Virus record (IMG/VR): IMGVR_UViG_3300042446_001683
DNA length: 64,000 nt
Reading direction: 5' to 3' (one strand)
DNA from: a virus
This document shows, in pieces, positions 22,915 to 64,000 of the stretch; the first letter of the stretch is position 1; the number at the start of each line of letters is the position of its first letter. The position numbers were made by a program, and so were the translations under genes. A model generated the notes under the pieces. The model had not been told where the DNA came from, ran no database searches, and was given only the letters and a program-made list of their open reading frames with translations.

Positions 22915-22921
22915 AAGTTAT

Positions 22922-24358: not shown

Positions 24359-24369
24359 TAAAAAGTTAT

Positions 24370-26128: not shown

Positions 26129-26144
26129 TATTATATTAGGTTAT

Positions 26145-26780: not shown

Positions 26781-26786
26781 ATAAAA

Positions 26787-27197: not shown

Positions 27198-27412
27198 ACT
27201 ATCCAAATATGAAATCTACAGTTAATACTCAAGGAGAAGTAGTAACTCAGATTATACATTTTGTAGGTGGAATTAAAAGAACATACCATGGTATATTAAC
27301 ATCATCTATAAAACAAGGTCAATTTACTAAGTTTAAATGTATTGATGGAAGTATGGTTATGATAAATGATGAAAATGTTTTATGTATTGAAATTTTTACT
27401 GAAAAGTTATGA
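27182..27412 (+). CDS. Hypothetical protein
   Basis: Overlapping, coupled ORF. Confidence 0.65.
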   Translation: MENKVDYPNMKSTVNTQGEVVTQIIHFVGGIKRTYHGILTSSIKQGQFTKFKCIDGSMVMINDENVLCIEIFTEKL

Positions 27413-28829: not shown

Positions 28830-29461
28830 TAAAAGAAAAATACTCAGGAGAAATTATTGACAATTTAATAAATTTCTTTAAATTAAATGTAAAAGGAATA
28901 TTACATGTTGGAGCTCATAAATGTGAAGAATTAGATGTATATTTAAAATACACAGACTCTAATAGTATATATTGGATTGAAGCTATAGAATATTTAGTTA
29001 AACAAAATTTAGATAATATACCTAATCTAAACATTATAAATGAGGTGATAGGTGATAAAGATGGAGTAGAAGTTGAGTTTAAAATAACAAATAATACTTT
29101 AAGTTCATCAATTTTAGAATTAGGTGAACATAAAGATTTACATCCTAATGTTATTGTTACCGATGTATTAAAATTAAAAACTAAAACATTAGAAACTATT
29201 TTTAATGAAAATTCATTACATGGTAAATTTAACACATTAGTTTTAGATCTACAAGGAGCTGAAATATTAGCTTTAAAAGGATTAAAAGATATAATTAATG
29301 AGTTTGATATTATCTACACTGAAGTAAATGAGAAAGAAATATATAAAGAATGTTGTATTTTAGAAGATTTAGACTTATATTTAAATCAATACAATTTTGA
29401 AAGAAAATACTTAAACACATTAAATAACTATGGAAACGCTTTATACATCCGAAAACATTAA
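28826..29461 (+). CDS. FkbM-family methyltransferase
   Basis: LHVGAH, LDLQGAEILALKG, IYTEV. Confidence 0.85.
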   Translation: MIKEKYSGEIIDNLINFFKLNVKGILHVGAHKCEELDVYLKYTDSNSIYWIEAIEYLVKQNLDNIPNLNIINEVIGDKDGVEVEFKITNNTLSSSILELGEHKDLHPNVIVTDVLKLKTKTLETIFNENSLHGKFNTLVLDLQGAEILALKGLKDIINEFDIIYTEVNEKEIYKECCILEDLDLYLNQYNFERKYLNTLNNYGNALYIRKH

Positions 29462-30053
29462 AAATCTTAATACTAAAGGATTTACAGTTATAGATAATGT
29501 CTTATCTTTAGATTTAGCAGAAAAAATTTATGATGCTTATAATGAAGAAACTGAATGGGATTTATTTAATCAAGTAAGAGAAAAACATTACAGTCATGTT
29601 TTTAAATCACCTAACCCATACCTTCCTCAAGAGACAGAATCTTACTCAGCTAAATTTAATAGGTCATCTAATTTAGAGAACTCTAGTTTAATCACAAATA
29701 CATTTAATAACATATTAGTACCGTTATTAAAATCTGTATCCCCATTTCATGTGGATGAATTTGATGTTAGATGTTATAAATTAGATAAAGATAATCATTA
29801 TAGAACACATATTGATGATTACGCTGGGACTATTAATTTAATTTATTATGTTAATAAAGAATGGAGATGGGATTGGGGAGGAATATTAAATATAGTATCA
29901 CATGATGATTTAGAATTATGTGAATCCATTTTTCCTAAATTCAATAGAGTAGTATTACTAAATAATAAAGTATTTAGATCACCTCACTTTGTCAGTTCTG
30001 TTGAGTCATTTGCTTTAAATTCTAGATATTCTATTGTCTCATTTAATAAATAA
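29430..30053 (+). CDS. 2-oxoglutarate/Fe(II) oxygenase (prolyl-hydroxylase-like)
   Basis: HID (HxD), WGG.L, PKFNR, PH, RYS. Confidence 0.85.
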   Translation: METLYTSENIKNLNTKGFTVIDNVLSLDLAEKIYDAYNEETEWDLFNQVREKHYSHVFKSPNPYLPQETESYSAKFNRSSNLENSSLITNTFNNILVPLLKSVSPFHVDEFDVRCYKLDKDNHYRTHIDDYAGTINLIYYVNKEWRWDWGGILNIVSHDDLELCESIFPKFNRVVLLNNKVFRSPHFVSSVESFALNSRYSIVSFNK

Positions 30054-30056
30054 AAT

Positions 30057-30938
30057 ATGAAAATACTTTCTAATTTTAGATCAGAAAATGATCCTTATTT
30101 TTTATTCATTAAACAAAGATACAGTAATAAACCTATCACATTTTGGTATGATAAATTACCTGAGTCTATTAAACAGTTAGAATTAAATCCTTACAATTTT
30201 TTATTCTTACATGAACCAAATGAATTTTTTGGTTATCATACTAATACGCTTAAGTTAAGTCATTATTACACAGCTATATTAACATGGAATGATATGTTAT
30301 TAACTCAATGTGATAATGCTATTAATTTCACTTATAATGGGCAAACATTAGATGATGAATTTATAAACAATATTAGTGGAAAAGAATTTAATATTTCATT
30401 TTTATGTGGTACTAAAGAATTAGTTGATGGGCATAAATTAAGACAAGAAGTATATAAATTAAAAGAAAAAATTCAAATCCCTAAAAAATGGTATTATGTT
30501 TTAGATGATTATGATCAAGTAACTAATACTAGACCTGGATATACTGATTATTCTAAAGATTTATCTCATATTCCTCAAGGAGTAGATCCTATAGGATATG
30601 GTAGAAGAGTGTTGTTTAATAATTCTATGTTTAATATTGTTATAGAAAATGTAAACTACAATAATTGGTATAATAAGATAGGTGATAATTTTTTAACTAA
30701 AACTATTCCATTATATTGGGGCTGCCCTAATATAGCTGAGTTTGGGTATGATGAAAGAGGTATCATTAGATTTAATAATGAAAATGAATTATTAAATATT
30801 ATTAACAACTTAACACCTGAAATTTATAAAGATATGCTGCCTTATATTAATCACAATTATGAATTAGCTAAAAAAGATACTTTTGAAAATAATATAAGCC
30901 AATTTTTTGATAATTTTTTTAATATAAATAACATATGA
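30057..30938 (+). CDS. GT10 (fucosyltransferase)-like protein
   Basis: FNIVIEN...KIGD.F..KTIPLYWG. Confidence 0.7.
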   Translation: MKILSNFRSENDPYFLFIKQRYSNKPITFWYDKLPESIKQLELNPYNFLFLHEPNEFFGYHTNTLKLSHYYTAILTWNDMLLTQCDNAINFTYNGQTLDDEFINNISGKEFNISFLCGTKELVDGHKLRQEVYKLKEKIQIPKKWYYVLDDYDQVTNTRPGYTDYSKDLSHIPQGVDPIGYGRRVLFNNSMFNIVIENVNYNNWYNKIGDNFLTKTIPLYWGCPNIAEFGYDERGIIRFNNENELLNIINNLTPEIYKDMLPYINHNYELAKKDTFENNISQFFDNFFNINNI

Positions 30939-31411
30939 TATTCCCAGAAGTAAAAGTATACCAACCAGATGTATTTGAAGATTTTAGAGGTGAATTATTT
31001 ACACTGTATAAACAAGAAGAAAGTGATTTACATTTTAACCATGATAAAGTTTCTATATCAAAACAAAATGTTTTAAGAGGATTACATGGTGATAATAAAT
31101 CTTGGAAATTAATTACTTGTTTAGCAGGAGAAGTATATTTAGTTATTGTTGATAATAGACCTAATTCTGAAAATTATTTAAAATGGGATTGGATAGTATT
31201 AACAGCTAAGAATAGAAAACAAGTTTTAATCCCACCTAAATTTGCTAATGGTCATTTTGTTTTAAGCTCAGAAGCTACATTCTTCTATAAATGGTCTTAC
31301 CCAGGAGAATATCCGGATGTTGAGAGTCAATTTACTTTAAAATGGAATGATCCAAATATAAACATTCACTGGCCAAGTAATAATCCAATACTATCAAAAA
31401 GAGATAAATAA
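30935..31411 (+). CDS. rfbC: NDP-4-keto-sugar 3,5-epimerase (RfbC-like), second paralogue
   Basis: FEDFRG, LRGLHG, IPPKFANGH, WNDP.I.I.WP. Confidence 0.85.
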   Translation: MIFPEVKVYQPDVFEDFRGELFTLYKQEESDLHFNHDKVSISKQNVLRGLHGDNKSWKLITCLAGEVYLVIVDNRPNSENYLKWDWIVLTAKNRKQVLIPPKFANGHFVLSSEATFFYKWSYPGEYPDVESQFTLKWNDPNINIHWPSNNPILSKRDK

Positions 31412-31415
31412 GAAT

Positions 31416-32336
31416 ATGAAAAAAATAACAACACAAGATGTAGAAAATATTGTTGGTTTCCCAATCAGCAATTATTGTAAACAAACTATAGAAGATTTTA
31501 ATCTTGAATATCAAACTTTAACTCAACAAGAAAGAGATAAAGTTATACTAGACATGATTCATCATATTAATCTAAATTTAGAAAAAGCAGGTAAACATCG
31601 TTTAGAAAAATGGGAAAATGGATGGGATGAGAATCTTGAACTATTAAAAGCTGGGAATCATGTAAGTAGTTTAGTTCCAAAATATTTTGGAAAGTATGAT
31701 GTCATGAGGTGGAAAGGTGATTTTATAAAAAGTAATATTAAATATTTTGATTATTATCAACTTGTTATATTAGTAGATGCTATATTACATGAATATATAG
31801 GAAATAAGTATAATAATGTATTTGAATTTGGTTGTGGTCCTGCTTATCATTTATTACGATTTGGAGAATTTAATAATAATATCAACCTAATAGGATTAGA
31901 TTGGGCTACTTCATCACAAAATATTATTCAAAATATAAATGAGTTAGGAATAAATAATAAAATAAAAGGATATAATTTTGATTTCTTTAATCCTGATTAC
32001 CAAATAGACATTCCTGAAAGTAGTGCTGTGTTCACTTGTAATGCTTTAGAACAAATAGGTGAAAATTATAAGGATTTTATTGATTTTCTTTTAGTTAAAA
32101 AACCTGACATTTGTATTAATTTTGAACCAATCCCAGAACTTTTAGATAAAGATAGTCTAGTTGATCAATTATGTGTAATGTATTCTGAAAAGAGAAATTA
32201 TTTAAAAGGATATTTATCTTATTTAGAACAATTAGAAAGTGAAGGAAAAATTGAAATAATTCTAAAGAAAAGGCTATTTGGAGGTTCATTATATTTAGAA
32301 GGATACCCATCAGTAATATGGAAAATTAAAAAATAA
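31416..32336 (+). CDS. Class I SAM-dependent methyltransferase
   Basis: FEFGCGP, GLDW, FDF, ALEQ. Confidence 0.75.
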   Translation: MKKITTQDVENIVGFPISNYCKQTIEDFNLEYQTLTQQERDKVILDMIHHINLNLEKAGKHRLEKWENGWDENLELLKAGNHVSSLVPKYFGKYDVMRWKGDFIKSNIKYFDYYQLVILVDAILHEYIGNKYNNVFEFGCGPAYHLLRFGEFNNNINLIGLDWATSSQNIIQNINELGINNKIKGYNFDFFNPDYQIDIPESSAVFTCNALEQIGENYKDFIDFLLVKKPDICINFEPIPELLDKDSLVDQLCVMYSEKRNYLKGYLSYLEQLESEGKIEIILKKRLFGGSLYLEGYPSVIWKIKK

Positions 32337-32337
32337 T

Positions 32338-33219
32338 ATGAATACTATTATTGAAACTAGAAAAAAAGTTTATAAAAACTTACCTAAAAATTATCTATCA
32401 TTAAATGATTTAGTATTATTGTATGATATTGATGAAAATGATTATAATAACTTAATTGAGTCTGTTAAAAACTATATACTTAAATCTTTAAGTTTAGCTT
32501 ATAATAAGGAATTTATTTGGAGTGATACATTTTTAGAAGATAATAATGATTTAATCTTAAATCTACCTAATAAAACTCCAAATGGAGTTATTAAACCTAA
32601 AAAAGAAATTGAAGATCAATATACTCAAATACAATTTAGTATTAATAAAATATTAACTAATTTAGGATTATATTCTCATATAGGACAAATGGTTCTACCT
32701 AATATTAGATATAAAAATTCAAATGAGAGTACTGATACTAAAAATAGACCATATTACACTAGTAAATTTCATTCTGATGCTTGGATAGGCCATAAAGGAG
32801 ATTGCCAGTTATTAATAGGTGTTTTAGGAGATATAGATAACAACACAGTTGAATTTAATGAACCAATTAATGTTCATGATAATTACTTAGATAAAGCGGA
32901 AAGTTTTGATGAAGGAAATACTCGATATGAACAATTTAATATATTAGGAACATTAACTAAAGGAAAATTAGGTATAATGGATCATGCTTGTTTACATAGA
33001 ACTTTAATTAAGGAAAATGGTAAATCTAGAGTATCAATAGATATAGCAACTATGATTAATAGTGAGTATTCTCACATATATGATGAAGGATATGATCCAA
33101 ATATGTACACATATCATTCTTCTGAAGTAATTCAATCTATAGGAAAAACTCATAAATATACTATTAATGAACCATTGGATTCATTATCAACAACAGTAAA
33201 CATTATAAAGAATGTTTAA
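32338..33219 (+). CDS. Possible Fe(II)/2OG dioxygenase-fold protein
   Basis: FHSDAW (HxD), LHRT, RVSID. Confidence 0.5.
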   Translation: MNTIIETRKKVYKNLPKNYLSLNDLVLLYDIDENDYNNLIESVKNYILKSLSLAYNKEFIWSDTFLEDNNDLILNLPNKTPNGVIKPKKEIEDQYTQIQFSINKILTNLGLYSHIGQMVLPNIRYKNSNESTDTKNRPYYTSKFHSDAWIGHKGDCQLLIGVLGDIDNNTVEFNEPINVHDNYLDKAESFDEGNTRYEQFNILGTLTKGKLGIMDHACLHRTLIKENGKSRVSIDIATMINSEYSHIYDEGYDPNMYTYHSSEVIQSIGKTHKYTINEPLDSLSTTVNIIKNV

Positions 33220-33261
33220 AATATCTTGGAAAATTAAAAAAATAATATTATATTAAATTAT

Positions 33262-33888
33262 ATGAAAATACCATCACAATACACTAAAGTTAGAGATGTC
33301 AATATGACACCTCAAGAACTTATTGCTTTTGAAGATAGAGTAAAAGACGCTTACGAAGCAGGACAGGTAAAAGGACCTGTTCATCTATCTAAAAATAATG
33401 AAGAACAATTAATAGAATTGTTCCAATATATTCATCCTGATGACTGGGTATTCTCAGCTTGGAGAAACCATTATCATGCTTTACTTCATGGAGTTGATTC
33501 TGAGAAATTGTTCTCATGGATATCTGAAGGTAGAAGTATGGGTACTAATAATGTTAGTCCTAATTTTTACGCTTCATCTATTGTAGGAGGAATTGTTCCA
33601 TTATCATTAGGAGCAGCTATGGGATTGAAAAGGAAAAATTCACCTCGTAGAGTTTGGTGTTTTATAGGTGATATGACTATGGAAACAGGAGTGTTTCATG
33701 AAGCATACAAATACTCTCAGAATTTTAATCTACCATTACAATTTGTAGTTGAAGATAATAACTTAAGTGTTCACACACCTACTGATATTGCTTGGGGTAA
33801 AAGAATGGATGTGCCTGAGAATGTTATTTATTATTCTTATAAAATGTCATATCCACATCATGGAACAGGAAAATGGGTTAATTTTTAA
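33262..33888 (+). CDS. TPP-dependent enzyme, E1-alpha-like subunit
   Basis: GPVHL, RNHYH, GDMT...EDNN TPP motif; own promoter at 33225-33255. Confidence 0.85.
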   Translation: MKIPSQYTKVRDVNMTPQELIAFEDRVKDAYEAGQVKGPVHLSKNNEEQLIELFQYIHPDDWVFSAWRNHYHALLHGVDSEKLFSWISEGRSMGTNNVSPNFYASSIVGGIVPLSLGAAMGLKRKNSPRRVWCFIGDMTMETGVFHEAYKYSQNFNLPLQFVVEDNNLSVHTPTDIAWGKRMDVPENVIYYSYKMSYPHHGTGKWVNF

Positions 33889-33893
33889 TTATT

Positions 33894-34430
33894 ATGAAAT
33901 ACAAATTTGAATTAGTTAGAGCAATGGAATGGCTTGGAGCCAAACCTAATACAGTATTTACAGGACAAGCAATTGGTTTTAGTGGCCACGCTATCTCAAA
34001 TACTATGGAAAAAGTACCTCAAGACAAACGAATTGAACTACCAGTACTTGAAGAAACTCAATTAGGAATGGCTACAGGAATGGCTATGACAGGATGGGTT
34101 CCAATTACATGCTACCCTCGATTTGATTTCTTTATCTTAGGTTTAAATCAATTAGTTAACCATTTAGATAAAATGCAAGATATGTCTAATGGGGATATGA
34201 AACCAAAAGTTATTATTAGAGTAGCAGTTGGATCAAAAGTTCCATTTAGCGCTGGTCCTCAACATACTCAAAACCATACTGAAGCAATTAGAAAAATGCT
34301 TACTGAAGTAGAGGTAGTTGAGTTAATAGAACCTGAACAAATATTTGAAGCATTTCAAACTGCTTATGAAAGAGAAGATGGTAAATCAACATTAATTATT
34401 GAACATGCTGAGTATTATGGGACAAAGTAA
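33894..34430 (+). CDS. TPP-dependent enzyme, E1-beta-like subunit (pyrimidine-binding domain only)
   Basis: ELPVLEE..LGMATGMA, NQLVN, GPQH. Confidence 0.85.
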   Translation: MKYKFELVRAMEWLGAKPNTVFTGQAIGFSGHAISNTMEKVPQDKRIELPVLEETQLGMATGMAMTGWVPITCYPRFDFFILGLNQLVNHLDKMQDMSNGDMKPKVIIRVAVGSKVPFSAGPQHTQNHTEAIRKMLTEVEVVELIEPEQIFEAFQTAYEREDGKSTLIIEHAEYYGTK

Positions 34431-35589
34431 TTTTAATTGGCCTCTTATTAATGATAATATTTCTCAAACAGATAGAGAAGTATTAGCTGATTTTTGTTTA
34501 AACGGAGAACGTTTTACAAATGGACCTAAAGTAAAAGAATTTGAGAACATATGGTCTGAATGGTTAGGTGTTAAACATAGTGTTATGGTTAATTCAGGAG
34601 CATCAGCTAATTATATCTCAATAGCTATGGTTAAAGAATTATTAGGTGAGGGAGAGATTATAGTACCACCTTTAGGATGGGTATCAGATATTTCATCTGT
34701 AGCTCAATTAGGAATGACACCAGTATTTGTAGATATAAGTTTTAATAATTTAGCTATAACAGCTGAAAATATTAAACGAGCTATCACTCCTAAAACAAAA
34801 GCAATTGTATTGATACATTGTTTAGGTTTTAATGGTATTAATGATGAGATTATTAAAATAGCTAAAGATAATAACTTAATCTTAATTGAAGATTGTTGTG
34901 AGTCACATGGTGCTATGTTTGGTGATAAAAAAATAGGCTCAATAGGAGATATTTCATTATTTTCATTTTATTTTGGTCATCATATAACAACTATTGAAGG
35001 TGGAATGGTATGTGTTAATAATCCTAAATTATATGATTTAGCTAAATTATTCCGCTCACATGGTATGACTAGAGAAGCATCAACTGAATTGCAGAATGAT
35101 TATCAAAACAAATATCCTAAATTAAATCCATTATTTACATTTGCTGTAGCTGGGTTTAATATGAGAAGTACTGAGTTAAATGCTGTACTAGGGATTGAGC
35201 AAATGAAACGTATTGATTATAATATTAACAGACGTGTTGGGAATCTTAAAACATGGTTGGATCATTTAGATTCAAGTAAATTCATGACTAGTTTTACAAC
35301 TCAAGGAAATAGTAGTTTTGCTTTACCATTAATACTACAATGGTCTAATGTTAATAAATTAAAAGATGTTTGTAAGATATTAGAAGAAGAAAAAGTAGAG
35401 TATAGATTAGGGACCGCGGGAGGTGGGAATCAAGCGCTTCAACCATATTTAAAAAAGTTTAATTATCGAATTAATGATAGACTACCTGTAGTTGATTATA
35501 TTCACTTAAACTCACTTTATATCGGTAACCATCCTGAATTAACAGATGAACAAATTATTAACCTTTGTAATAAATTAAATAATGTTTAA
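34417..35589 (+). CDS. PLP/PMP-dependent GDP-4-keto-6-deoxymannose 3-dehydratase (ColD-like)
   Basis: DegT fold with His in place of the Schiff-base Lys (SFYFGHHITTIEGG); no Fe-S Cys cluster after HG. Confidence 0.75.
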   Translation: MGQSNFNWPLINDNISQTDREVLADFCLNGERFTNGPKVKEFENIWSEWLGVKHSVMVNSGASANYISIAMVKELLGEGEIIVPPLGWVSDISSVAQLGMTPVFVDISFNNLAITAENIKRAITPKTKAIVLIHCLGFNGINDEIIKIAKDNNLILIEDCCESHGAMFGDKKIGSIGDISLFSFYFGHHITTIEGGMVCVNNPKLYDLAKLFRSHGMTREASTELQNDYQNKYPKLNPLFTFAVAGFNMRSTELNAVLGIEQMKRIDYNINRRVGNLKTWLDHLDSSKFMTSFTTQGNSSFALPLILQWSNVNKLKDVCKILEEEKVEYRLGTAGGGNQALQPYLKKFNYRINDRLPVVDYIHLNSLYIGNHPELTDEQIINLCNKLNNV

Positions 35590-36553
35590 AAATCAAAAAG
35601 TTTTAGTTACTGGTGGTGGTGGAATGATTGGCCGCTCATTAGTGAAGTTTTTACTAGAAAAAGGAGCTAAAGTAACCATAGCAGACTTAACCCAACCTTC
35701 AGATTTACCTAAAGGAGTAAAGTATAAAAAAATAGATTTAAGATACTTTGACCAGTGTGAAAAAATTTGTAATGGTATGGATTATGTCTTTAATCTAGTG
35801 GGTATTAAAGGCTCACCTAAAATGTGTGCTGAACAACCAGCTGATTTTATGGTACCGATGCTTCAATTTAATACTAACATGATGGAAGCAGCTCGTAGAG
35901 CAGATGTTAAATGGTACTTATATACTAGCTCAGTTGGAGTATACGCCCCAGCAGATGTATTTAAAGAAGATGATGTATTAAATACAGTTCCATCGCCTAA
36001 TGATCGTTTTGCAGGTTGGGCTAAGAGAATGGGTGAAATGCAAGCAGAAGCATATTCTATTCAGTATGAATGGAATAAAGTATCTATTGTTAGACCAGCT
36101 AATGTATATGGAGCATATGACAATTTCAACCCAGCAAATGCAATGGTTGTTCCTTCATTGATTAGAAAAGCTCAAGAAAATAATATATTGGAAGTTTGGG
36201 GTGATGGCTCAACAATTAGAGATTTTATTCATGCTGATGATGTAGCTTTAGGAATGATATTTGCTGTTGAAAATGGAATTACCCAACCATTAAACTTAGG
36301 CTCAGGAGAAGGTTACTCAATTAAAGAAGTGGTTGATATGGTGGTTAAATACTCTAATAAACCATTAGAAGTAAAATGGCTAACTGATAAACCAGCTGGA
36401 GATAAAATTCGTTTATTTGATATGACTAGAGCTAAATCACATGGATTTGACATCTCAGTATCATTAGAAGAAGGAATTAAAAGAACTACTGAGTGGTTTC
36501 TGAATAATAAAGAAATTTTAGATAAACGTTATAACGCATTTGTAAATCACTAA
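35582..36553 (+). CDS. NAD-dependent sugar epimerase/reductase (SDR)
   Basis: VTGGGGMIG, RPANVYG, WGDG...RDF. Confidence 0.85.
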   Translation: MFKNQKVLVTGGGGMIGRSLVKFLLEKGAKVTIADLTQPSDLPKGVKYKKIDLRYFDQCEKICNGMDYVFNLVGIKGSPKMCAEQPADFMVPMLQFNTNMMEAARRADVKWYLYTSSVGVYAPADVFKEDDVLNTVPSPNDRFAGWAKRMGEMQAEAYSIQYEWNKVSIVRPANVYGAYDNFNPANAMVVPSLIRKAQENNILEVWGDGSTIRDFIHADDVALGMIFAVENGITQPLNLGSGEGYSIKEVVDMVVKYSNKPLEVKWLTDKPAGDKIRLFDMTRAKSHGFDISVSLEEGIKRTTEWFLNNKEILDKRYNAFVNH

Positions 36554-37245
36554 TGAAAGATTTTTTAATAACAGGAATTAATAGTGGCTTAGGTAAGCAT
36601 CTATATAATAATTTACCTAACTCATTAGGATTAAATAGAGATAATTTTGATTCTATAAAAGATGAAAGTTATCAAACTATAATACATTGCGCGTTTAATA
36701 AAGAAAATATTATTACTGATTATAAAAAATATCTAGATGATAATATTCTTCTAACTCAACGTCTTAAAAATTTAAAATATAATAAATTTATTTATATATC
36801 AACTATAGATGTTTATCAAGAATATCATAATATGTATTCTTTTTTTAAAAAATTCTCAGAAACATTACTAGATGATAAGGATTTAATTTTAAGATGTTCT
36901 ATGATGTTGGGTCCAACTATGAAACCTAATCACCTAACTAAGATTAAATCTAATATTGATCATATATCATTATCAAAAGACTCAACATTTAATTATATTC
37001 TTATGGATGATTTAGTTGAGTTTTTTATAAGTAATGATTATTTAGGTTATTCTGGAGTGATTGATTTTGTATCTAATTCTAATATTACTTTAAATGAACT
37101 AAAACAAATTATCAATTCTACCACACAATTAGGAGAATATACTTATAAAAGTAATTTGGAATTTACAAATCCTATTTATAAATTAAATAATAAATATAAT
37201 AAAACATCAATTAACAATTTAAAAAAATATGAAAGATTTCTATAA
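36553..37245 (+). CDS. Short SDR-family protein
   Basis: LITGINSGLG, YIST..VY, YSFFK. Confidence 0.7.
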   Translation: MKDFLITGINSGLGKHLYNNLPNSLGLNRDNFDSIKDESYQTIIHCAFNKENIITDYKKYLDDNILLTQRLKNLKYNKFIYISTIDVYQEYHNMYSFFKKFSETLLDDKDLILRCSMMLGPTMKPNHLTKIKSNIDHISLSKDSTFNYILMDDLVEFFISNDYLGYSGVIDFVSNSNITLNELKQIINSTTQLGEYTYKSNLEFTNPIYKLNNKYNKTSINNLKKYERFL

Positions 37246-38185
37246 AGATAAAATAGTAGTAGTCACTGGAGGCTCAGGATTCATAGGTACTCACTATATC
37301 TTAGAATTATTAGAAAGAGGAGCAAAAGTTAGAACTCATACTCATGAAAAACCACTCCAAATTCAAAATGAGAATATTGAAATTATTGAAAATATTGATT
37401 TAACAAAACTAGAAGATTGTCTTAAATTAATAGAAGGAGCAGATTATGTGATCCACTCAGGAGGTAAAATAGCACACCCATCTACAGTTCCTACAGATAT
37501 TCAAATATCAATGCAAAACATATTAGTATTAGGTAATGTACTAGAAGCATCTTATAAATTAAAAATTAAAAGATTTTTAGATCTAAATAGTTCAACAGGA
37601 TATCCTGATAGACGTTACCCAATTAAAGAAGATGAATTTTGGGATGATGAACCATATAAAGCATATTATGGATATGGTTGGATGCGTCGTTATAGAGAAA
37701 AATTAATGGAACATGTTTATAAATTCTCAGGAATGGAAATAATGTTGGCTCGTGGAACTGCAATTTATGGTCCTAATGATAATTTTGATCCTAAAACATG
37801 CCATGTAGTTCCTGCTTTGATTAAACGAGTTTTAGATGATGAAAATCCATTTATAGTATGGGGTACACCAGATGTAGTAAGAGATTTTTTATATGTTAAA
37901 GATGTTGTTAAAGCAGCTTTACTAATATTAGAAAAAGGTGAACCTATGAGACCATATAATGTTGGAGCTGGGTATACTGTCACTGTAGGAGATATTGTTA
38001 ATGCTATATTAAAGGCAACTGGTAAAACACCTGAAGTTGTTTATGATGATTCAAAACCAACTACTATACCATTTAGAATGGTCAGCACAGAACGTATTAA
38101 TACTGAATTAGGATTTGAACCATCTTATACTTTTGAAGAAGGAATTAAGGAAACAGTTGAATGGTATATAAATAATAAAAAATAA
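37229..38185 (+). CDS. GDP-L-fucose/colitose synthase-like SDR
   Basis: VTGGSGFIG, YGPNDNF...HVVPALI, WG....RDFLYV.D. Confidence 0.8.
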   Translation: MKDFYKDKIVVVTGGSGFIGTHYILELLERGAKVRTHTHEKPLQIQNENIEIIENIDLTKLEDCLKLIEGADYVIHSGGKIAHPSTVPTDIQISMQNILVLGNVLEASYKLKIKRFLDLNSSTGYPDRRYPIKEDEFWDDEPYKAYYGYGWMRRYREKLMEHVYKFSGMEIMLARGTAIYGPNDNFDPKTCHVVPALIKRVLDDENPFIVWGTPDVVRDFLYVKDVVKAALLILEKGEPMRPYNVGAGYTVTVGDIVNAILKATGKTPEVVYDDSKPTTIPFRMVSTERINTELGFEPSYTFEEGIKETVEWYINNKK

Positions 38186-39195
38186 TGAATAAAGTTTTAA
38201 TAACTGGAATTACAGGAATGGTAGGTTCACATTTAGTTGATTACCTATTAGAAAATACAGATTGGAAAATTTATGGTCTATGTAGATGGAATGATTCATT
38301 AGAAAATATTGAACATTTATCTGAGGACATTAATAAAAAAGAACGCATTGAGTTAGTATATGGTGATTTAAATGATTTAGCTTCATTAATATCAGCTATA
38401 AATAAATCAAAACCTGATTATGTTTTTCATTTAGCTGCCCAATCATATCCTCAAACTAGTTTTGATTCACCAATTGAAACATTACAAACTAATATTTTAG
38501 GAACAACTAATTTATTAGAAGCATTACGAGGCTCAAAATATAAAAATGCTATAATTCATGTTTGTGCATCAAGTGAAGTATTTGGTAGAGTACCTAAAGA
38601 AAAATTACCTATTAATGAGGAATGTTCATTCCACCCAGCATCACCTTATGCTATATCTAAAGTAGGAACTGATTTAGTAGGTCGTTATTATGCTGAAGCA
38701 TATGGGATGACTATTATGACTACTAGAATGTTTACTCATACTGGTCCTAGAAGAGGAGATGTATTCTCTGAATCAACATTTGCTAAACAAATAGCAATGA
38801 TTGAAGCTGGATTGCAAGAACCTAAAATATATGTTGGGAATTTAGATTCATTAAGAACATATGCTGATGTTAGAGACGCTGTTAAAGCATATTATATGTT
38901 AGTGACAATTAACCCTACATCAGGTGAATATTATAATATTGGGGGTGAATACACTTGTAAAATAGCTGATATGCTTGATTTCTTAATCAATCAATCAACT
39001 GTTCCTAATATTGAAATAGTAACTGACCCAGAGCGTTTAAGACCAATTGACGCAGATTTGCAAATACCAGACACAACAAAATTTAGAAACCACACAGGAT
39101 GGAAACCAGAAATCTCTTTTGAAACAACTATGAAAGATCTTTTGGACTATTGGAGAAATAAAGTAAATTCAGGACGTAAATTTTTAAAACGATGA
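38185..39195 (+). CDS. gmd: GDP-mannose 4,6-dehydratase
   Basis: LITGITG, HLAAQS, SSEVFG, SPYAISK, HTGPRRG, GNLDS.R. Confidence 0.88.
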   Translation: MNKVLITGITGMVGSHLVDYLLENTDWKIYGLCRWNDSLENIEHLSEDINKKERIELVYGDLNDLASLISAINKSKPDYVFHLAAQSYPQTSFDSPIETLQTNILGTTNLLEALRGSKYKNAIIHVCASSEVFGRVPKEKLPINEECSFHPASPYAISKVGTDLVGRYYAEAYGMTIMTTRMFTHTGPRRGDVFSESTFAKQIAMIEAGLQEPKIYVGNLDSLRTYADVRDAVKAYYMLVTINPTSGEYYNIGGEYTCKIADMLDFLINQSTVPNIEIVTDPERLRPIDADLQIPDTTKFRNHTGWKPEISFETTMKDLLDYWRNKVNSGRKFLKR

Positions 39196-39929
39196 AAATA
39201 TTAGTTATAGGTGATAGTTGCAAAGATATCTTTAGATATGGAAGAGTAACTCGAATAGCACCTGAGGCCCCAGTTCCTATTATTGTACCAGAAAGAGAAA
39301 CATCTAACCCAGGTATGGCGGGTAATGTAGTAGCTAATTTAAAAAAATTAGATTCAACAGTAGATTTTGTTACTAATCGAAATGAGATATTTAAAATTAG
39401 ATATGTTTGTTCTAAGTATAATTATTTACTTTTAAGAGTAGATGAAAATGATATATGTGAACCTATTTCTTATGATGTGTTAGATAATATAAAATGGGAA
39501 GATTATGATGCTGTAGTGATAAGTGATTATTGTAAAGGATTTTTAAATGAAGATGATATTAAATATATTTCTTTAAAACACCCACTAACATTTTTAGATA
39601 GTAAAAAATTATTAGGTGAATGGGCTCATAATATTAGTTTTATAAAAATTAATTTTCATGAGTATGAAAGAAATGAAGAAATTTTAAAAAATGATCCTAT
39701 TTTAAAAAATAAAACAATAGTAACTAGAGGTAAATTTGGATGTGAGTTCCAAGAAAAAAACTACCCAACTAAAGAAGTACCAGTAAAAGATGTTTCAGGA
39801 GCTGGAGACACATTTTTAGCTGGATTGGTCCATAATTATACTAACACTAAAAATATAGAATCAGCTATTGAGTTCGCACAACAGTGTACAATTATAGTGA
39901 TACAAAAAACTGGAGTGTCAACAATTTAA
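39192..39929 (+). CDS. PfkB/HldE-kinase-like sugar-phosphate kinase
   Basis: IAPEAPVP, GMAGNV, SDYCKG, DVSGAGDTF. Confidence 0.85.
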   Translation: MKILVIGDSCKDIFRYGRVTRIAPEAPVPIIVPERETSNPGMAGNVVANLKKLDSTVDFVTNRNEIFKIRYVCSKYNYLLLRVDENDICEPISYDVLDNIKWEDYDAVVISDYCKGFLNEDDIKYISLKHPLTFLDSKKLLGEWAHNISFIKINFHEYERNEEILKNDPILKNKTIVTRGKFGCEFQEKNYPTKEVPVKDVSGAGDTFLAGLVHNYTNTKNIESAIEFAQQCTIIVIQKTGVSTI

Positions 39930-39953
39930 AAAGATATTAAAAATAATAAAATA

Positions 39954-40811
39954 ATGGAAACAACAGCAGTATTATTAAATTGCCGAAATGATGGTTACAA
40001 AGAAGATGAACGTTTTGTAACTTGTATGAATTCAATGATTGAAACATTTGATGAAATATGGTATTGTGACTGGAATTCTCCTTCAGATAAAGGATCACTA
40101 CTTCATCAAAATCTAGATAAAATTCCTCAAATTGGAAAAATTAGACATTTTATAATAGATCCTGAGACAACTAAATTGCTAACAGGTTCTAACCCAAAAA
40201 TAGGAGACTTCTCATACATTATTCCTCAAAATATTCTACTACGTAGATGTACTGCAGACTGGATTGTAAGTTCAGCTATAGACATTATAGCGCCTAATAA
40301 AAAGCATTTTGATGAGTTTTTACCTATGTTAAATAAAAATACATTCTACACAGCGGCTAGAAGAGATATAGAATATTCTGGTCTTGAAGAAATGGGATTT
40401 GAAAATTGGAGAGAATTTAGAGACAAAATGGATATAGAAGTCTCACCTATATACTACCCAGCGAAAGTCACTCCTAACGATAATTGGAGTTTAATTAATT
40501 GTTGTGGTGACTTTCAAATCGCTCATAGAGATGTATGGCATAAAATAAAAGGATTTGAAGAACAAATGGTTTATGCTTGTTACCAAGATACTAATGTACA
40601 GAAAAAAGCAGTATTAAATGGATATAATTTAGAAGCTTATTTAGGTTTACCTTTATATCATTTATCTCATAAAGGTATGGGTAATGATGGAACATCACCA
40701 TCTAAACAACATTATAATGATTCTTGGGATTGGGTTGAATTTTTTATTGAGACCCAAAATGATGAAAATTGGGGATTAGGAGATACTGAAATTGAATTTG
40801 AAATTATCTAG
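39954..40811 (+). CDS. Probable GT-A glycosyltransferase
   Basis: RNDGY, CDWNS, DII, GDFQ, GFEE. Confidence 0.55.
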   Translation: METTAVLLNCRNDGYKEDERFVTCMNSMIETFDEIWYCDWNSPSDKGSLLHQNLDKIPQIGKIRHFIIDPETTKLLTGSNPKIGDFSYIIPQNILLRRCTADWIVSSAIDIIAPNKKHFDEFLPMLNKNTFYTAARRDIEYSGLEEMGFENWREFRDKMDIEVSPIYYPAKVTPNDNWSLINCCGDFQIAHRDVWHKIKGFEEQMVYACYQDTNVQKKAVLNGYNLEAYLGLPLYHLSHKGMGNDGTSPSKQHYNDSWDWVEFFIETQNDENWGLGDTEIEFEII

Positions 40812-44087: not shown

Positions 44088-44290
44088 AAAGAAAGAAAAG
44101 AGCATTTGATATAAATAAAGAACCTGAGTTCATTGTTTTGAATGACCAATGTCAAGCATTTATTGGATTCAAACAAGGTGAAGCAGTATTCTCAGATGAT
44201 TTGGATTTAGCAAAACCACTCTATAATGATAATCAAGTGGCTACACTCAGAGTATACACTTATAGTAAACTAGAAAAAGAATATATATGA
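44084..44290 (+). CDS. Hypothetical protein
   Basis: ATGA-coupled ORF. Confidence 0.65.
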   Translation: MKRKKRAFDINKEPEFIVLNDQCQAFIGFKQGEAVFSDDLDLAKPLYNDNQVATLRVYTYSKLEKEYI

Positions 44291-44625
44291 AATTATTATT
44301 AGGAATGTTAGTAGGAGTGTTAGCCCAAACATTAACTTTTCTTCAACTGCAAGGAAGATGGAAGTTTGAATGGATGAAGAACCATCAATGGGCTATGGTA
44401 TTATTAGGTATTCCTATTTCAATATTATTCATGACCTCAGTTAGTTTAATGGTTGAACATTTTGATGGACAATTATGGCCATCTAGATTAATTGGTTTTG
44501 TTATAGGTACAATTATGTTTACAATTATGTCTGTGTCATTATTTGGAGAACCAATAACAATGAAGACAGCTATTTGTTTAGTATTAAGTTTAATTATATT
44601 AATGGTACAATTATTTTGGAAATAA
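44287..44625 (+). CDS. Four-TM small membrane protein (SMR/DMT-like size)
   Basis: Four hydrophobic helices; GEPIT. Confidence 0.65.
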   Translation: MKLLLGMLVGVLAQTLTFLQLQGRWKFEWMKNHQWAMVLLGIPISILFMTSVSLMVEHFDGQLWPSRLIGFVIGTIMFTIMSVSLFGEPITMKTAICLVLSLIILMVQLFWK

Positions 44626-45385: not shown

Positions 45386-45706
45386 ATGTTAGTAATTATC
45401 TTATCAGCTGCTTTAGTAGTAGCAACAACAGCAGCAGTAATGTTTGCTTCAAAAACACAGTTTCTTACAAATGAATTAGAAGCTGTTAATTCTGAAATTA
45501 GGCCACTTAAAGAGTCTTTAGAATTAAATAATGCACAACGTCAATTGCTTCGTAATGAGGTGACAGTATTGAAATCTCAAATCCGAGTAATGGAAAGTAA
45601 ATCAATGCATGGTATTGTTGATGTTCCTAAAACTGAGGAAGTAAAGAAAAAGAAAAAATATTTCAAAAAGAAACCAGCCCCAAAAATGTCAGCTGAAAAG
45701 AAGTAA
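45386..45706 (+). CDS. N-terminal TM, coiled coil and basic tail protein
   Basis: Hydrophobic N-terminus, heptad pattern. Confidence 0.65.
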   Translation: MLVIILSAALVVATTAAVMFASKTQFLTNELEAVNSEIRPLKESLELNNAQRQLLRNEVTVLKSQIRVMESKSMHGIVDVPKTEEVKKKKKYFKKKPAPKMSAEKK

Positions 45707-45918: not shown

Positions 45919-46123
45919 TGTACTTACTCTTAATGGTACACCTTATGTTGTAAGGCGTAGAGTTTGGGTTGGTAGATTTGTAGATAACTTAACAGGTCAA
46001 ACTAGAAATGAACTTATTGAGTTATGGAAAGAGTATACTGAATCAGATCAAGTGTACCAAGAAGGAGAAGCATTATTCTTTTTACAAGAAATTAAAGAAC
46101 CAGAATGGGAGGAAATAATATGA
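45902..46123 (+). CDS. Hypothetical protein
   Basis: Coupled ORF. Confidence 0.65.
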   Translation: MVTRNDVLTLNGTPYVVRRRVWVGRFVDNLTGQTRNELIELWKEYTESDQVYQEGEALFFLQEIKEPEWEEII

Positions 46124-46299
46124 AAAAACTAATTTTATTCTTAATTGTAGCTGTTTTAGCTTCATGCTCAGCTCCTCAAAAAGGCTATAACTATAAAAGC
46201 CATAGTAATAGACAACAAACAATGTATAAACAAACTAAACGAGTTAACAAAGGTAAAAGTCAACTTAATCATCAATGTACACCTAAAAAACATAGATAA
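46120..46299 (+). CDS. Small lipoprotein
   Basis: MKKLILFLIVAVLAS-C lipobox. Confidence 0.65.
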   Translation: MKKLILFLIVAVLASCSAPQKGYNYKSHSNRQQTMYKQTKRVNKGKSQLNHQCTPKKHR

Positions 46300-49608: not shown

Positions 49609-49799
49609 GATTAAGTGAAGTAACTATATATCCTAGAGTCTATAACGTTATTGAGACAATTGATAATAGATTTAGTAATGGGAGTGAAATCAAAGTATGC
49701 CATGTTAGTGACAACTCATTATTAGTGGCTGTAGGTTCAGGCCTAGCATTTATATTAGATAAAGAAGAAGCAAAACAAATAAAAGTAGAATCAAGATGA
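49605..49799 (+). CDS. Hypothetical protein
   Basis: ATGA-coupled. Confidence 0.6.
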   Translation: MRLSEVTIYPRVYNVIETIDNRFSNGSEIKVCHVSDNSLLVAVGSGLAFILDKEEAKQIKVESR

Positions 49800-50113
49800 A
49801 AAAAGTATTATTAACATTATTAAGTATAGGTTTAATTAGTTGTGATTTAATTACACCACCACCAATTCTTATATCTCGTGTAGATACAGTCAAGGTAAGT
49901 CTACAACCGATTATTCCAACAGACACTACTAAGGCATGGCCTATTAAAGTTGTATCTGTAGAAAGAAATGTAGATAAAAGTATAGATATGAAATGGCAGG
50001 TAGTAACTGAGAATGGAGTTATGTATTATACTAATAAGAAGCCACAAATTGGTGATGTAGCTTTTTGTTTAGGAATGGATGAAGAAATTGTTGACTGTGA
50101 TTGCAAGAAGTAA
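49796..50113 (+). CDS. Lipoprotein
   Basis: MKKVLLTLLSIGLIS-C lipobox. Confidence 0.65.
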   Translation: MKKVLLTLLSIGLISCDLITPPPILISRVDTVKVSLQPIIPTDTTKAWPIKVVSVERNVDKSIDMKWQVVTENGVMYYTNKKPQIGDVAFCLGMDEEIVDCDCKK

Positions 50114-50123
50114 AATGTCGGTG

Positions 50124-50131
50124 ATATTTAT
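50124..50131 (+). promoter_or_regulatory. Putative late promoter ATATTTAT upstream of the endolysin
   Basis: Intergenic motif. Confidence 0.5.
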
Positions 50132-50148
50132 CACTAAACAATTTACTT

Positions 50149-50979
50149 ATGTTATTAAAAAACGGATCGAAAGGAGAAGAAGTTAAACAACTTCAAACAT
50201 TATTAGGTTTAGGAGCTGATGGAAGCTTTGGACCAATGACAGAAGCTAAAGTCAAAGAATGGCAAGCTAAAAACGGATTAACAGCAGATGGTATTGTAGG
50301 CCCTAGCACATGGGGTAAAATGTTTGGAGCAGCACCAGTAGCTGCACCTGTAGCTGCACCAGTAGCAATACCACCAAGTTCATTTAAATTAGATGCTTTA
50401 AAAGGACATATTCCTGATGCTGTAATTGCTCAAATCCCAGATACAGCAGCAAAATTCAATATTACAAACCCACTACGTTTAGCTCATTTCTTAGCACAAT
50501 GTGGTCATGAATCAGGTGGATTCAAATTCATTAATGAGAATTTAAACTATTCAGCTGATGGTTTAAAGAAGATATTTGGAAAATATTTTCCTGGTGATTT
50601 AGCTAATTCTTATGCTCGTAACCCTGAAAAAATAGCATCTCGTGTTTATGGAGCTAGAATGGGTAATGGTGATGAATCAACAGGTGAAGGATTTAAATAT
50701 CGTGGACGTGGTTACATCCAATTAACTGGAAAATCTAATTATACTAGCTTTGCTAAATTCATAGGTGAAGATACAGTTGCTAATCCTGATTTAGTAGCAA
50801 CTAAATATCCATTAGCATCAGCAGCATTTTTCTTTGATTCAAATAAATTATGGTCAATATGTGATAAAGGAGCTGATGAAGCAACTGTCACTGCGGTTAC
50901 TAAACGAGTTAACGGCGGTACAATTGGTTTACCAGATCGTATTAAGCATTTCAATGAGTACTATAATTTATTAAAATAA
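50149..50979 (+). CDS. Endolysin: peptidoglycan-binding domain plus GH19 lysozyme/chitinase-like domain
   Basis: DG.FG..T..DGIVGP.TW; FLAQCGHESGG, ENLNYS, YRGRGYIQLTG, NGG..GL.DR. Confidence 0.92.
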   Translation: MLLKNGSKGEEVKQLQTLLGLGADGSFGPMTEAKVKEWQAKNGLTADGIVGPSTWGKMFGAAPVAAPVAAPVAIPPSSFKLDALKGHIPDAVIAQIPDTAAKFNITNPLRLAHFLAQCGHESGGFKFINENLNYSADGLKKIFGKYFPGDLANSYARNPEKIASRVYGARMGNGDESTGEGFKYRGRGYIQLTGKSNYTSFAKFIGEDTVANPDLVATKYPLASAAFFFDSNKLWSICDKGADEATVTAVTKRVNGGTIGLPDRIKHFNEYYNLLK

Positions 50980-52086
50980 ATGAAAAATCTACCTAAAGAA
51001 GAATTATTAAGTAGACTTGAAGCAATTAATAGAAGCAACGCTATTATATACTTTGACCTTAATGGGGTTATATTAGGAGTTAATGATATTTTTTTAGAAG
51101 TAATGGGTTATGGTAAAGGCAACCATGAAGATTTAGTTGGAAAACACCATAGTATTTTTGTATGTGATGATTATTCAAGATCACTTGAGTATGAAAAGTT
51201 TTGGGACATCTTAAGAAGTGGTAAATACTATCAAGGTGAGTTTGAGAGAAGAAAAAAGGATGGAAGTCTTATTAATCTTCAAGCAACTTACAATCCTATT
51301 TTTGATGAGAATAATAAGATTACTAAGATAATGAAGATTGCTACTGATATTAGTTTAATTGTTAACAGCAAGAAACAAATAGATGCAATTAACAGAAGTA
51401 CAGCTCTTATCAGTTTCAACACTGACGGATTTATCATAGACGTCAATTCTATATTTTTAGAAACTATGGGGTATAAGCCCAATGAAAAATCTAAAGTTGT
51501 AGGAAAACATCATAGTATTTTTGTTAGCTATGAGTATTCCAAATCAGATGAATATGCTAAATTTTGGGAGAGTTTAAGAAAAGGTAAGTATTTTGACGGA
51601 GTATTTGAAAGAAAAAAAGTAGATGGCTCCACTGTCTATTTACAAGCATCTTATAATCCGGTATTGGACAGTAAAGGAAATATAACTGATGTAGTTAAGA
51701 TTGCGACTGATGTCACTGATGCTGTGAACAATAAGAAGAGAATAGATGAACTTTCAAAGAACTTACAAATAGAGTTAGATAACTCTCAGAAACTTAAGAA
51801 CGCAATTGAGATAGAAAAGGATGCTGCTTTGAATGATTTAGATGTGATGATGAAAAAAAGTCAAAGTGAATTAATAAAAACTATTGTTAAAGTTGCTTTA
51901 GCTGTCATAGTTGGAGTTGGAGTTGTAACAACAGCATTATATTGGATGGCTATTATAACAAATCAAGATACACAAATTATTGGTTCCACTTGGAGTAACA
52001 TGTTTAGTGTATTATTAACAAACGCATTTTCAATAGTTGGTACAATTATGGGTATTAAGTATGCAACACAAGACGGAAAAAAATAA
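50980..52086 (+). CDS. Tandem PAS-PAS, coiled coil and two C-terminal TM helices
   Basis: Two homologous PAS/PAC repeats (AINRS..I.F..G.I..VN.IFL..MGY...VGKHHSIFV...FW..LR.G...G.FER.K.DG....LQA.YNP...KIATD); two hydrophobic C-terminal helices. Confidence 0.85.
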   Translation: MKNLPKEELLSRLEAINRSNAIIYFDLNGVILGVNDIFLEVMGYGKGNHEDLVGKHHSIFVCDDYSRSLEYEKFWDILRSGKYYQGEFERRKKDGSLINLQATYNPIFDENNKITKIMKIATDISLIVNSKKQIDAINRSTALISFNTDGFIIDVNSIFLETMGYKPNEKSKVVGKHHSIFVSYEYSKSDEYAKFWESLRKGKYFDGVFERKKVDGSTVYLQASYNPVLDSKGNITDVVKIATDVTDAVNNKKRIDELSKNLQIELDNSQKLKNAIEIEKDAALNDLDVMMKKSQSELIKTIVKVALAVIVGVGVVTTALYWMAIITNQDTQIIGSTWSNMFSVLLTNAFSIVGTIMGIKYATQDGKK

Positions 52087-52116
52087 TAAAGAAGAAATAA
52101 ACGAGAAAGAGAAATA

Positions 52117-52719
52117 ATGGAAATATTAATCCCTGTCCTAATTGCTTTAATTACATCTGTGCTTGGTCCTATATTAATGGAGTGGGCTAAAGCTAAATTC
52201 AAAAAGAAATCAGCTGACCCAATGCCTGATGCTATTAAGTATAATGAGCAAATTGAACATCAATTAGATATAATACTTGATGAGTTAGAATGTGATCAAA
52301 TATTCATAGCTCAATTTCATAATGGAGGTCATTTTTATCCAACTGGTAAATCAATTCAAAAATTCTCTATATTCTATGAGGTATTAAACCCAAATATTGA
52401 ATCAGTTAAAAACATTTATCAAAATATACCTGTATCATTATTCAATAAACCATTATCTGAATTATATGAACATGGAGAGGTAATAATTGAAGATGCTGAG
52501 GCAGCTAATTCATATTTACTTAACACAACAACAGGTGGTAAATGTAAATCAATTTATTTATTAGCGTTAACTGATTTAGATGGGCGTATCATAGGTGTTA
52601 TGGGTATTCATTATATTGAAAAGAAACATAAAATAGTTAAAGACGAGTGGATTTTCATTCGTCAAAAAGTAGGTGCGATTGGTAATATTATTAGTAATTA
52701 TCTACATAGTAAAAAATAA
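52117..52719 (+). CDS. N-terminal TM plus GAF-like domain protein (holin candidate)
   Basis: Hydrophobic aa 1-21; IAQFHNGG...SIYLL.L.DLDG.IIGVMGI.Y GAF-like pattern; last gene of the endolysin unit. Confidence 0.5.
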   Translation: MEILIPVLIALITSVLGPILMEWAKAKFKKKSADPMPDAIKYNEQIEHQLDIILDELECDQIFIAQFHNGGHFYPTGKSIQKFSIFYEVLNPNIESVKNIYQNIPVSLFNKPLSELYEHGEVIIEDAEAANSYLLNTTTGGKCKSIYLLALTDLDGRIIGVMGIHYIEKKHKIVKDEWIFIRQKVGAIGNIISNYLHSKK

Positions 52720-52740
52720 ACACACCATTTCATGGATAAA

Positions 52741-52772
52741 GTTTGGCCTTCGGGCCATTCTTTGTTATATTT
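52741..52772 (+). promoter_or_regulatory. Bacteroidota-type promoter with embedded UUCG hairpin (ends the lysis unit)
   Basis: gtttggccttcgggccattctttgttatattt. Confidence 0.75.
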
Positions 52773-63935: not shown

Positions 63936-64000
63936 GTGTACCATTGTTTGGCTTTGTGGGTAATATTTATTATATTTAGGTATAATTAAAAATATAATAT

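Follow-up and report, generated by a model that had tools for sequence, protein, structure and literature searches.

A PAS-PAS sensor protein with a membrane hairpin beside a phage endolysin: a candidate signal-gated effector of lysis timing

In a stretch of viral DNA of 64,000 nucleotides (IMG/VR record IMGVR_UViG_3300042446_001683; the whole stretch is called here the window), the gene that starts directly after the endolysin encodes a protein of 368 amino acids (aa) in which two PAS domains are followed by a coiled coil and by a hairpin of two transmembrane (TM) helices. This sensor-hairpin protein could be a signal-gated membrane effector of lysis timing, a reading to which we would give about an even chance; as far as sequence comparison can carry it, a role in the timing of lysis is well supported by the genomic context. 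A broader proposal, which we hold somewhat less firmly, at a little below even, is that these phages own a modular signaling system, present either as a relay of separate proteins or as a one-piece fusion, whose gated hairpin would trigger or postpone lysis according to metabolic, redox or ligand state. What the hairpin does to membrane integrity and to the time of lysis, the direction in which it would be controlled, and the nature of the signal, we infer from the comparisons presented below. The elements on which the proposal rests are the following:

50149-50979, plus strand: endolysin of 276 aa (PG_binding_1 4e-14 and Glyco_hydro_19 8.4e-9 in Pfam; phrog_181 endolysin 1e-67)
50980-51354, plus strand: PAS repeat 1, aa 1-125 (PAS_3/PAS_9/PAS; AlphaFold2 (AF2) model with a predicted local distance difference test score (pLDDT) of 84-90)
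51355-51729, plus strand: PAS repeat 2, aa 126-250 (PAS_3/PAS_4; AF2 model)
51730-51861, plus strand: coiled coil or signaling helix, aa 251-294, which runs on into the first TM helix (TM1) and has a C-terminal juxtamembrane motif, DLDxxxKKxQxEL
51862-52065, plus strand: membrane hairpin, aa 295-362, formed by TM1, the loop NQDTQ and the second TM helix (TM2), of a phage-only family

The protein is a member of the PAS domain family and contains two PAS folds. Pfam places PAS_3 in two stretches (1.6e-26 for the whole protein, 92.8 bits against a cut-off of 25.6), the two repeats share 55% identity (E 4e-48), and Foldseek searches give matches to tandem PAS proteins with E values from 1e-15 to 1e-11. 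By hydropathy the TM segments lie at 296-328 and 341-359, and the AF2 model (pLDDT 79.6) is composed of PAS, PAS, an unbroken helix at 246-326, a turn at 327-331 and a further helix at 332-364, the first of these helices linking PAS2 through a coiled coil of about 45 aa into TM1, while the C-terminal end is charged (KYATQDGKK). The TAA stop codon of the endolysin directly abuts the ATG of the sensor-hairpin gene at 50980-52086 (TAA-ATG), and the endolysin itself, whose GH19 domain is muramidase/chitinase-like, is without signal peptide, TM or hydrophobic segment. In all this the open reading frame (ORF) map, Pfam, hydropathy and the AF2 model bear out an earlier reading of the letters of this DNA (the original prediction), which had described the coordinates, the abutting start, the two PAS repeats, the coiled coil and the two TM helices, and which had also remarked that an output domain was missing: Pfam finds in the 368-aa protein no kinase (HisKA/DHp, HATPase_c), methyl-accepting chemotaxis protein (MCP), GGDEF or HTH domain, and gives no match to MCPsignal or HAMP at E ≤0.01, the C-terminal 119 aa consisting instead of the coiled coil and the two TM helices, so that the tail is the only output candidate.

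According to the searches made with it, this tail is an independent, phage-only module. When residues 250-368 alone were compared with 1.84 billion cluster representatives, 104 representatives were recovered (phmmer E to 1e-47), mostly proteins of 100-260 aa that match at their C-terminus, and these form an independent family. Their shared core consists of DLDxLQKKxQxEL, TM1, a short loop and a nearly invariant TM2 (W..., (L)LTN(A/S)FSI(I/V)GT(I)MG(V/I)KYA), and the invariant hairpin residues (W338, T347, N348, F350, S351, I352, G354, T355 and G358 in window numbering) are all present in the window protein, which we therefore place in an unnamed family of putative output proteins made of a coiled coil and a two-TM hairpin. 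The suggestion that a sensor had been grafted onto a separable tail is supported by the variety of what precedes it: the PAS pair of the window, a single PAS of the window type (P0123), a single PAS of a different type in which the asparagine of N-R-x-K-D-G is kept (P0132), a GAF domain (P0129; Pfam 2.5e-17) and, most commonly, a conserved domain of about 75 aa with a longer coiled coil, called here the base form (about 197 aa); the tail also occurs as proteins of about 130-230 aa. Odd N-termini are found on four tail-bearing proteins (P0122, P0125, P0135 and P0157), namely a C2H2-like zinc finger, a Rossmann-like start, a SOUL-like piece and a glycosyltransferase fragment, which may be further fusions or else chimeras of assembly or gene calling.

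The tail has no family in Pfam or in PHROG (DUF7442 and Phage_holin_3_6, each found in 1 of 22 tails in a scan at E up to 1, were set aside as noise), no usable match in the ESM Atlas, and no match by tblastn in 50,697 deposited phage genomes, in which the full protein is matched only through its PAS regions, in 3 records. Among 185,579 prokaryotic species (one genome each), scanned with a narrow tail alignment as the broader alignment is too diverse, the family appears in only three contigs of metagenome-assembled genomes (MAGs). These contigs (L165, L166 and L167, of 13-36 kb, labeled Verrucomicrobia, Gemmatimonadota and Alphaproteobacteria) carry a trio of kinase, regulator and hairpin protein, and are probably phage contigs binned into MAGs, because they are small and the trio is of the phage type. 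In IMG/VR, on the other hand, the loci number at least 181 for the PAS-PAS form and at least 414 for the base form, and the sensor-hairpin gene has more than 5000 metagenomic relatives.

The association with lysis genes was examined in 80 PAS-PAS loci, whose ORFs were all clustered and whose recurrent neighbors were annotated. In 76 of the 80, and in 49 of the 50 that have full flanks (four or more genes on each side), the gene has an endolysin no more than three genes away, so that the homologues are indeed linked to lysis genes, as the original prediction needed them to be. The endolysin is not always the same, being a GH24, M15, GH19 or PG_binding protein on either side of the gene, and the immediate neighbors belong to 19 families upstream and 12 downstream. 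The recurrent neighbors are Phage_lysozyme, Peptidase_M15_3, GH19 and PG_binding_1 enzymes, together with two Phage_holin_4_1 families, a two-TM family of about 90 aa, proteins with a TM and a coiled coil, and a lipoprotein that has a TM at its C-terminus. In the GAF form, genes for GH19 and glucosaminidase enzymes are found within 2 kb; the base form has a holin of the Phage_holin_4_1 type within five genes in 57 of 80 loci; and small membrane families are common to the PAS-PAS and the base-form sets.

The gene is also under strong constraint, with a ratio of nonsynonymous to synonymous substitution (dN/dS) of 0.08 at a synonymous divergence (dS) of about 0.8 across 64 full-length orthologues, and the constraint is strongest in the hairpin (dN/dS 0.058, 92% identity). 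At such a dS the high identity reflects constraint and not recent transfer, and recent horizontal spread was for that reason rejected as its cause. The sensor-hairpin protein is more conserved than each of its lysis neighbors in 84-100% of the comparisons between phage pairs (in the same pairs it is, for example, 88% identical, against 54% for the two-TM family c1), and the hairpins of the window and of the base-form phages share 69% identity, where ribonucleotide reductase reaches 62%. This conservation, similar to that of a core enzyme, and the invariant polar or small residues of TM2 (T347, N348, S351, G354, T355, G358), would argue against a mere anchor.

The base form suggests how the hairpin would be addressed when no sensor is fused to it. 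In 64 of the 69 base-form loci with enough upstream sequence, the tail protein is directly preceded by a membrane histidine kinase with PAS and HATPase_c domains and by a receiver-only response regulator of about 145 aa, whose stop often overlaps the start of the tail protein; two independent identity-based look-ups agree on this context. The PAS of the kinase is 35-39% identical to both window repeats, and the window protein looks like a one-piece version of this three-piece phage relay. No receiver domain (Response_reg) is present in five large PAS-PAS records, two of them complete with terminal repeats, and such complete genomes without Response_reg fit the idea that the PAS-PAS fusion replaces the relay. 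Complex prediction for the regulator and the N-domain of the base form gave a score of 0.49, as opposed to 0.12 for the best of three controls, with at least 94% of contacts shared between runs and a partner pLDDT of at least 85; 58 of 80 solved complexes attain the mark applied to such scores, as do 2 of 110 mismatched pairs, but among these only 7 of the 80 and both mismatches lie at 0.60 or below, and the prediction thus hints, weakly, that the regulator may dock on the 75-aa N-domain. In the base-form cassette (L086-L164, for instance L086:7555-8597) we observed an Amidase_2 endolysin, Phage_holin_4_1, a TM protein of 62-66 aa, the PAS-histidine kinase, the receiver-only regulator, in some cases a 2-TM coiled-coil protein of 165 aa, and the hairpin protein, often followed by conserved proteins of 176 aa or of about 400 aa (multi-TM with a coiled coil); an M15 peptidase lies near.

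With respect to the signal, the closest solved relatives of the PAS domains are the FAD-binding MmoS (3ewk), NifL (2gj3) and Aer (8dik), with E values from 4.8e-10 (MmoS) to 2.5e-5, and the original prediction had proposed the sensing of redox or energy state. This proposal loses ground, firstly, because both repeats carry Arg (FERRK and FERKK in the HMMER alignments) where the N-R-R-K motif has its flavin-contacting Asn, and also because the Aer residues R57/H58/D60 are not kept, aligning with V/S/E in the window repeats. The homology is real, yet the binding of a cofactor is not to be deduced from it, and heme-binding and ligand-free PAS domains are found among the fold matches at similar scores. 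Neither is this a classic LOV domain, as had already been noted, the position of the LOV motif NCRFLQ reading GKHHSIFV in both repeats, which does not correspond to a blue-light sensor. In the ESM Atlas the PAS part gives generic leads only.

If these observations are taken together, the arrangement could work as follows. The input would be the two cytoplasmic PAS domains, the output the two-helix hairpin, and the coupling between them the continuous helix of the coiled coil and TM1, whose rigid course from PAS2 to TM1 in the AF2 model supports this scheme. The hairpin, since it is constant across architectures while the sensor or receiver-docking part varies, would be the effector of a phage-only signaling family within the lysis cassette, and in other phages its input would come from a GAF domain or another type of PAS fused to it, or else from a PAS-histidine kinase encoded alongside and a receiver-only regulator that probably docks on the N-domain of about 75 aa. 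Holins fire on membrane depolarization. The steps could have been: (i) a ligand- or redox-dependent rearrangement of the PAS dimer, passed down the helix; (ii) a shift in the packing or insertion of the hairpin, by which a small depolarizing lesion would be opened or held closed, in the manner of a pinholin; (iii) and finally, the setting by this lesion of the moment when the phage's own holin fires and the endolysin, having no signal peptide, is released. As the hairpin is constant while the types of holin differ, autonomous action on the membrane, or a conserved target, would be favored over one specific holin; and autonomy would be favored also because holin candidates are missing within five genes in the window and in its closest relative (L004).

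Several points weigh against this reading. Holins, when defined by function, are small proteins of the membrane that have one or more TM domains and a charged C-terminus, are encoded beside an endolysin and make lethal lesions at a set time. The window protein has two TM domains, a charged C-terminus and an abutting endolysin, but its 368 aa and large N-terminal domain are unlike those of typical holins, and neither the tail nor the whole protein matches a holin or antiholin family in Pfam or PHROG. The base form has an endolysin within five genes in only 24 of its 47 full-flank loci, the window unit is surrounded by replication and metabolic genes (a DNA ligase downstream, a phosphoesterase upstream), the related loci are not phylogenetically independent of one another, and genes for membrane proteins may cluster for other reasons. 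To these must be added the replaced flavin-contacting Asn and the weakness of the docking prediction. If that clustering is general, the protein could be a membrane sensor or effector acting outside lysis, on host membrane energetics or transport, in superinfection exclusion, or in signaling to a host protein, and the lysis neighborhood would be incidental. We consider this unlikely but deserving of some weight: the extreme conservation of the hairpin could reflect a conserved host target, the endolysins of the base set are often five or more genes away, non-lysis genes ring the window unit, and gp200, the third gene of that unit, which encodes a membrane-anchored GAF-like protein, is abundant and yet usually located elsewhere in these genomes. 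However, the linkage to endolysins survives many rearrangements and at least four endolysin families, and it holds across three independent fusion types.

An explanation closer to known systems is that of a classical antiholin, in which the hairpin, like T4 RI acting on T, would bind the phage's own holin and block or release it, with the signal coming from the PAS domains. About 80% of the full-flank loci carry another small holin-type protein with at least two TM within five genes (Phage_holin_4_1, c1/d7 family), the position in the lysis cassette fits, and the small and polar stripe of TM2 would suit helix-helix binding; but those holin candidates belong to different families and are 54-66% conserved, whereas the hairpin is conserved at about 92% and is near-identical across both phage groups, no such partner is found within five genes in the window or in L004, and there is no similarity to any known antiholin. 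The protein also differs from antiholins of the T4 RI type in having no N-terminal signal, a predicted periplasmic loop of about 5-10 aa, and a bulk of cytoplasmic-type PAS. We therefore regard the antiholin as rather improbable, and the holin- or antiholin-like tail of the original prediction is weakened both by the lack of a holin family match and by the other holin-type proteins that stand near it in those loci. Far less probable still, to the point that we give it hardly any credit, is a chemoreceptor module captured from the host as an auxiliary gene that would interfere with taxis or biofilm dispersal. The Joint Genome Institute (JGI) annotation names many orthologues methyl-accepting chemotaxis protein, the feature neighbors in the ESM Atlas include bacterial MCP fragments, and Aer is among the nearest solved PAS domains; nevertheless, the MCPsignal and HAMP domains that would mark a methyl-accepting or BdlA-like soluble chemoreceptor are absent, the tail is phage-only and nearly absent from the species genomes, and the PAS domains are equally close to those of the phage kinase. 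Against the capture of a chemoreceptor module, as first suggested, stands an origin of the PAS domains by shuffling within the phage signaling cassette, which appears at least as likely because the same type of PAS is found in the phage kinase that precedes the unfused tail protein.

The proposed signal-gated effector of lysis timing, which remains the reading we prefer, is embedded in a locus whose other elements are these:

49796-50113, plus strand: lipoprotein of 105 aa directly upstream of the endolysin, with lipobox LISC and three C-terminal Cys
50124-50131, plus strand: upstream motif ATATTTAT, 18 nucleotides before the endolysin start, within the palindrome GTGATAttTATCAC
52117-52719, plus strand: gp200, third gene, after a gap of 30 nucleotides from the sensor-hairpin gene (hydropathy and AF2)
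52744-52757, plus strand: terminator-like hairpin, TGGCC-TTCG-GGCCA, followed by a T-run (TTCTTTGTT)
4705, 7294, 16743, 22706, 42394, 47380, 50124, 54225 and 63963, plus strand: intergenic copies of (t)ATATTTAT(a), from the motif count

The total of ATATTTAT in the window is close to chance (21 observed, 21.6 expected). Nevertheless, 9 of the 14 plus-strand copies are intergenic, where about 0.45 would be expected in view of the 5.5% of the window that is intergenic, and 8 of these 9 sit 5-28 nucleotides upstream of a start codon, the window ending before any start in the case of the copy at 63963. By this enrichment and by this placement ATATTTAT is a real recurrent upstream element, so that the motif pointed out at 50124 stands, and it is a candidate promoter element of the phage. 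Read as its reverse complement, the motif is similar to the T4 late promoter TATAAATA, but it lies in the opposite orientation. A perfect palindrome, GTGATA-tt-TATCAC at 50121-50134, overlaps the motif upstream of the endolysin and is operator-like; GTGATAttTATCAC was rejected as a repeated operator, as it occurs once in the window. A scan for sigma-70 promoters gave fewer matches than shuffled sequence and is uninformative. The hairpin that the original prediction had seen at 52745 is also there, and it is the sole terminator-like site in a scan of 48.5-54.6 kb, although shuffles average 2.1 and the single site is not significant by count.

Neither a ATATTTAT motif nor a terminator-like hairpin lies between the endolysin, the sensor-hairpin gene and gp200, and this fits the view, already put forward, that they form one transcription unit, without the absence of those elements amounting to proof of it. 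A metatranscriptome check (one run, 5% of its words) returned seven short contigs, mostly from relatives less than 90% identical, and is uninformative on transcription and on the operon. The 105-aa lipoprotein has no match in Pfam or PHROG and is a possible outer-membrane component of lysis. About 4-6 kb upstream of the endolysin there is a 4-TM protein (44287-44625) which is 41% identical to a family from the lysis cassettes of relatives, and two ORFs, at 45386-45706 and 46105-46299, encode an i-spanin-like protein with an N-terminal TM and a coiled coil and an o-spanin-like lipoprotein of 64 aa (lipobox LASC). It may be that this phage has its lysis genes at two separate sites. The source phage is large, with 30% G+C, and encodes a DNA polymerase, a ribonucleotide reductase, GroEL and a sugar-modification cluster, and it appears to be lytic; the GroEL chaperonin and a long block of glycosyltransferase, aminotransferase and epimerase genes of very low GC (25-29%) are located at 17425-19041 and 22900-40800.

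As for gp200, hydropathy gives it an N-terminal TM helix (aa 1-25), followed by KAKFKKK, and because of this lysine-rich stretch after the helix its C-terminal domain is probably cytoplasmic. The AF2 model has low confidence (pLDDT 61); the top Foldseek matches to it are nearly all GAF domains, with the periplasmic domain of the T4 holin T (6pxe_F) at rank 38, which supports a GAF-like fold to the extent that such a model allows. BLAST shows no significant similarity to the GAF domain of the GAF-form tail protein (E 0.15), and the only Pfam match, TetR_C_5, is below threshold. Metagenomic relatives of gp200 number 4447, at 89-100% identity, and usually lie away from the PAS gene; since just 2 of 80 loci have gp200 next to that gene, it was rejected as a conserved partner of the sensor-hairpin gene, with whose product the original prediction had suggested modeling it in a complex.

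Several known systems resemble the one proposed here in part. Class II holins such as the pinholin S21-68, studied by the Young laboratory, have two TM helices with N-in/C-in topology and a GxxxG-like stripe in TM2, and are encoded near the endolysin. The window protein shares with S21-68 the two TM helices, the predicted N-in/C-in topology, the short charged C-terminus, the small/polar stripe of TM2 and the adjoining endolysin, but has 368 aa, of which about 295 form a cytoplasmic sensor and coiled coil, matches no holin family, and is far more conserved than holins usually are. VqmA-Phage of VP882 is a PAS-HTH quorum-sensing receptor, a soluble transcription factor that acts in the lysis-lysogeny decision. 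Like VqmA-Phage, as it is generally described (cf. the review PMC7790227), the window protein would be a phage PAS sensor linking a small-molecule signal to the killing of the host, though it is a membrane protein without a DNA-binding domain, in a phage that is apparently lytic. In T4 lysis inhibition the holin T is controlled by the antiholin RI (PMC11413866), and lysis inhibition is described for ICP1 (PMC7182436); the likeness is that of a phage membrane protein in or near the lysis genes which is proposed to adjust the time of lysis to a sensed signal. However, RI reacts to superinfection and does its sensing in the periplasm, whereas the window family has PAS or GAF domains in the cytoplasm, or else a relay of kinase and regulator; the two have no relation of sequence or family, and the effector is in RI a secreted or anchored periplasmic domain and here a 2-TM hairpin.

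The base form, a two-component system tied to a holin-like membrane protein, recalls LytSR/LytST of Firmicutes, which control the holin-like LrgAB/CidAB in response to oxygen and metabolic state (PMC3507848). LytSR is cellular and transcriptional, with a DNA-binding LytR, while the regulator of the base form is receiver-only and a DNA-binding part is lacking in the one-piece form as well, so that control in the phage family would have to be post-translational. With MmoS the window protein shares the tandem PAS, and MmoS, NifL and Aer are the solved relatives nearest to it by both sequence and fold, from all of which it differs in the flavin and Aer residues mentioned and in its output. A search of the full-text literature found no description of a membrane protein linked to PAS, GAF or a two-component system in phage lysis cassettes, and both the architecture of the protein and the hairpin family appear to be undescribed.

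The timing of lysis sets burst size and phage fitness. To our knowledge, the only well-understood case of signal-adjusted lysis in a lytic phage is the lysis inhibition of the T-even phages, to which reports on ICP1 and N4 were later added. If the proposal is true, the lysis cassette would contain a phage sensor of the cytoplasm that is coupled post-translationally to an effector in the membrane. This would be a new principle, by which a virus would read the internal state of its host, and it would constitute a counterpart of T4 lysis inhibition that senses in the cytoplasm and is widespread among abundant aquatic phages. The fused and unfused versions offer a ready experimental design, in which the inputs would be swapped and the output kept, and the hairpin would be a compact candidate for engineered ligand-gated lysis or for membrane switches.

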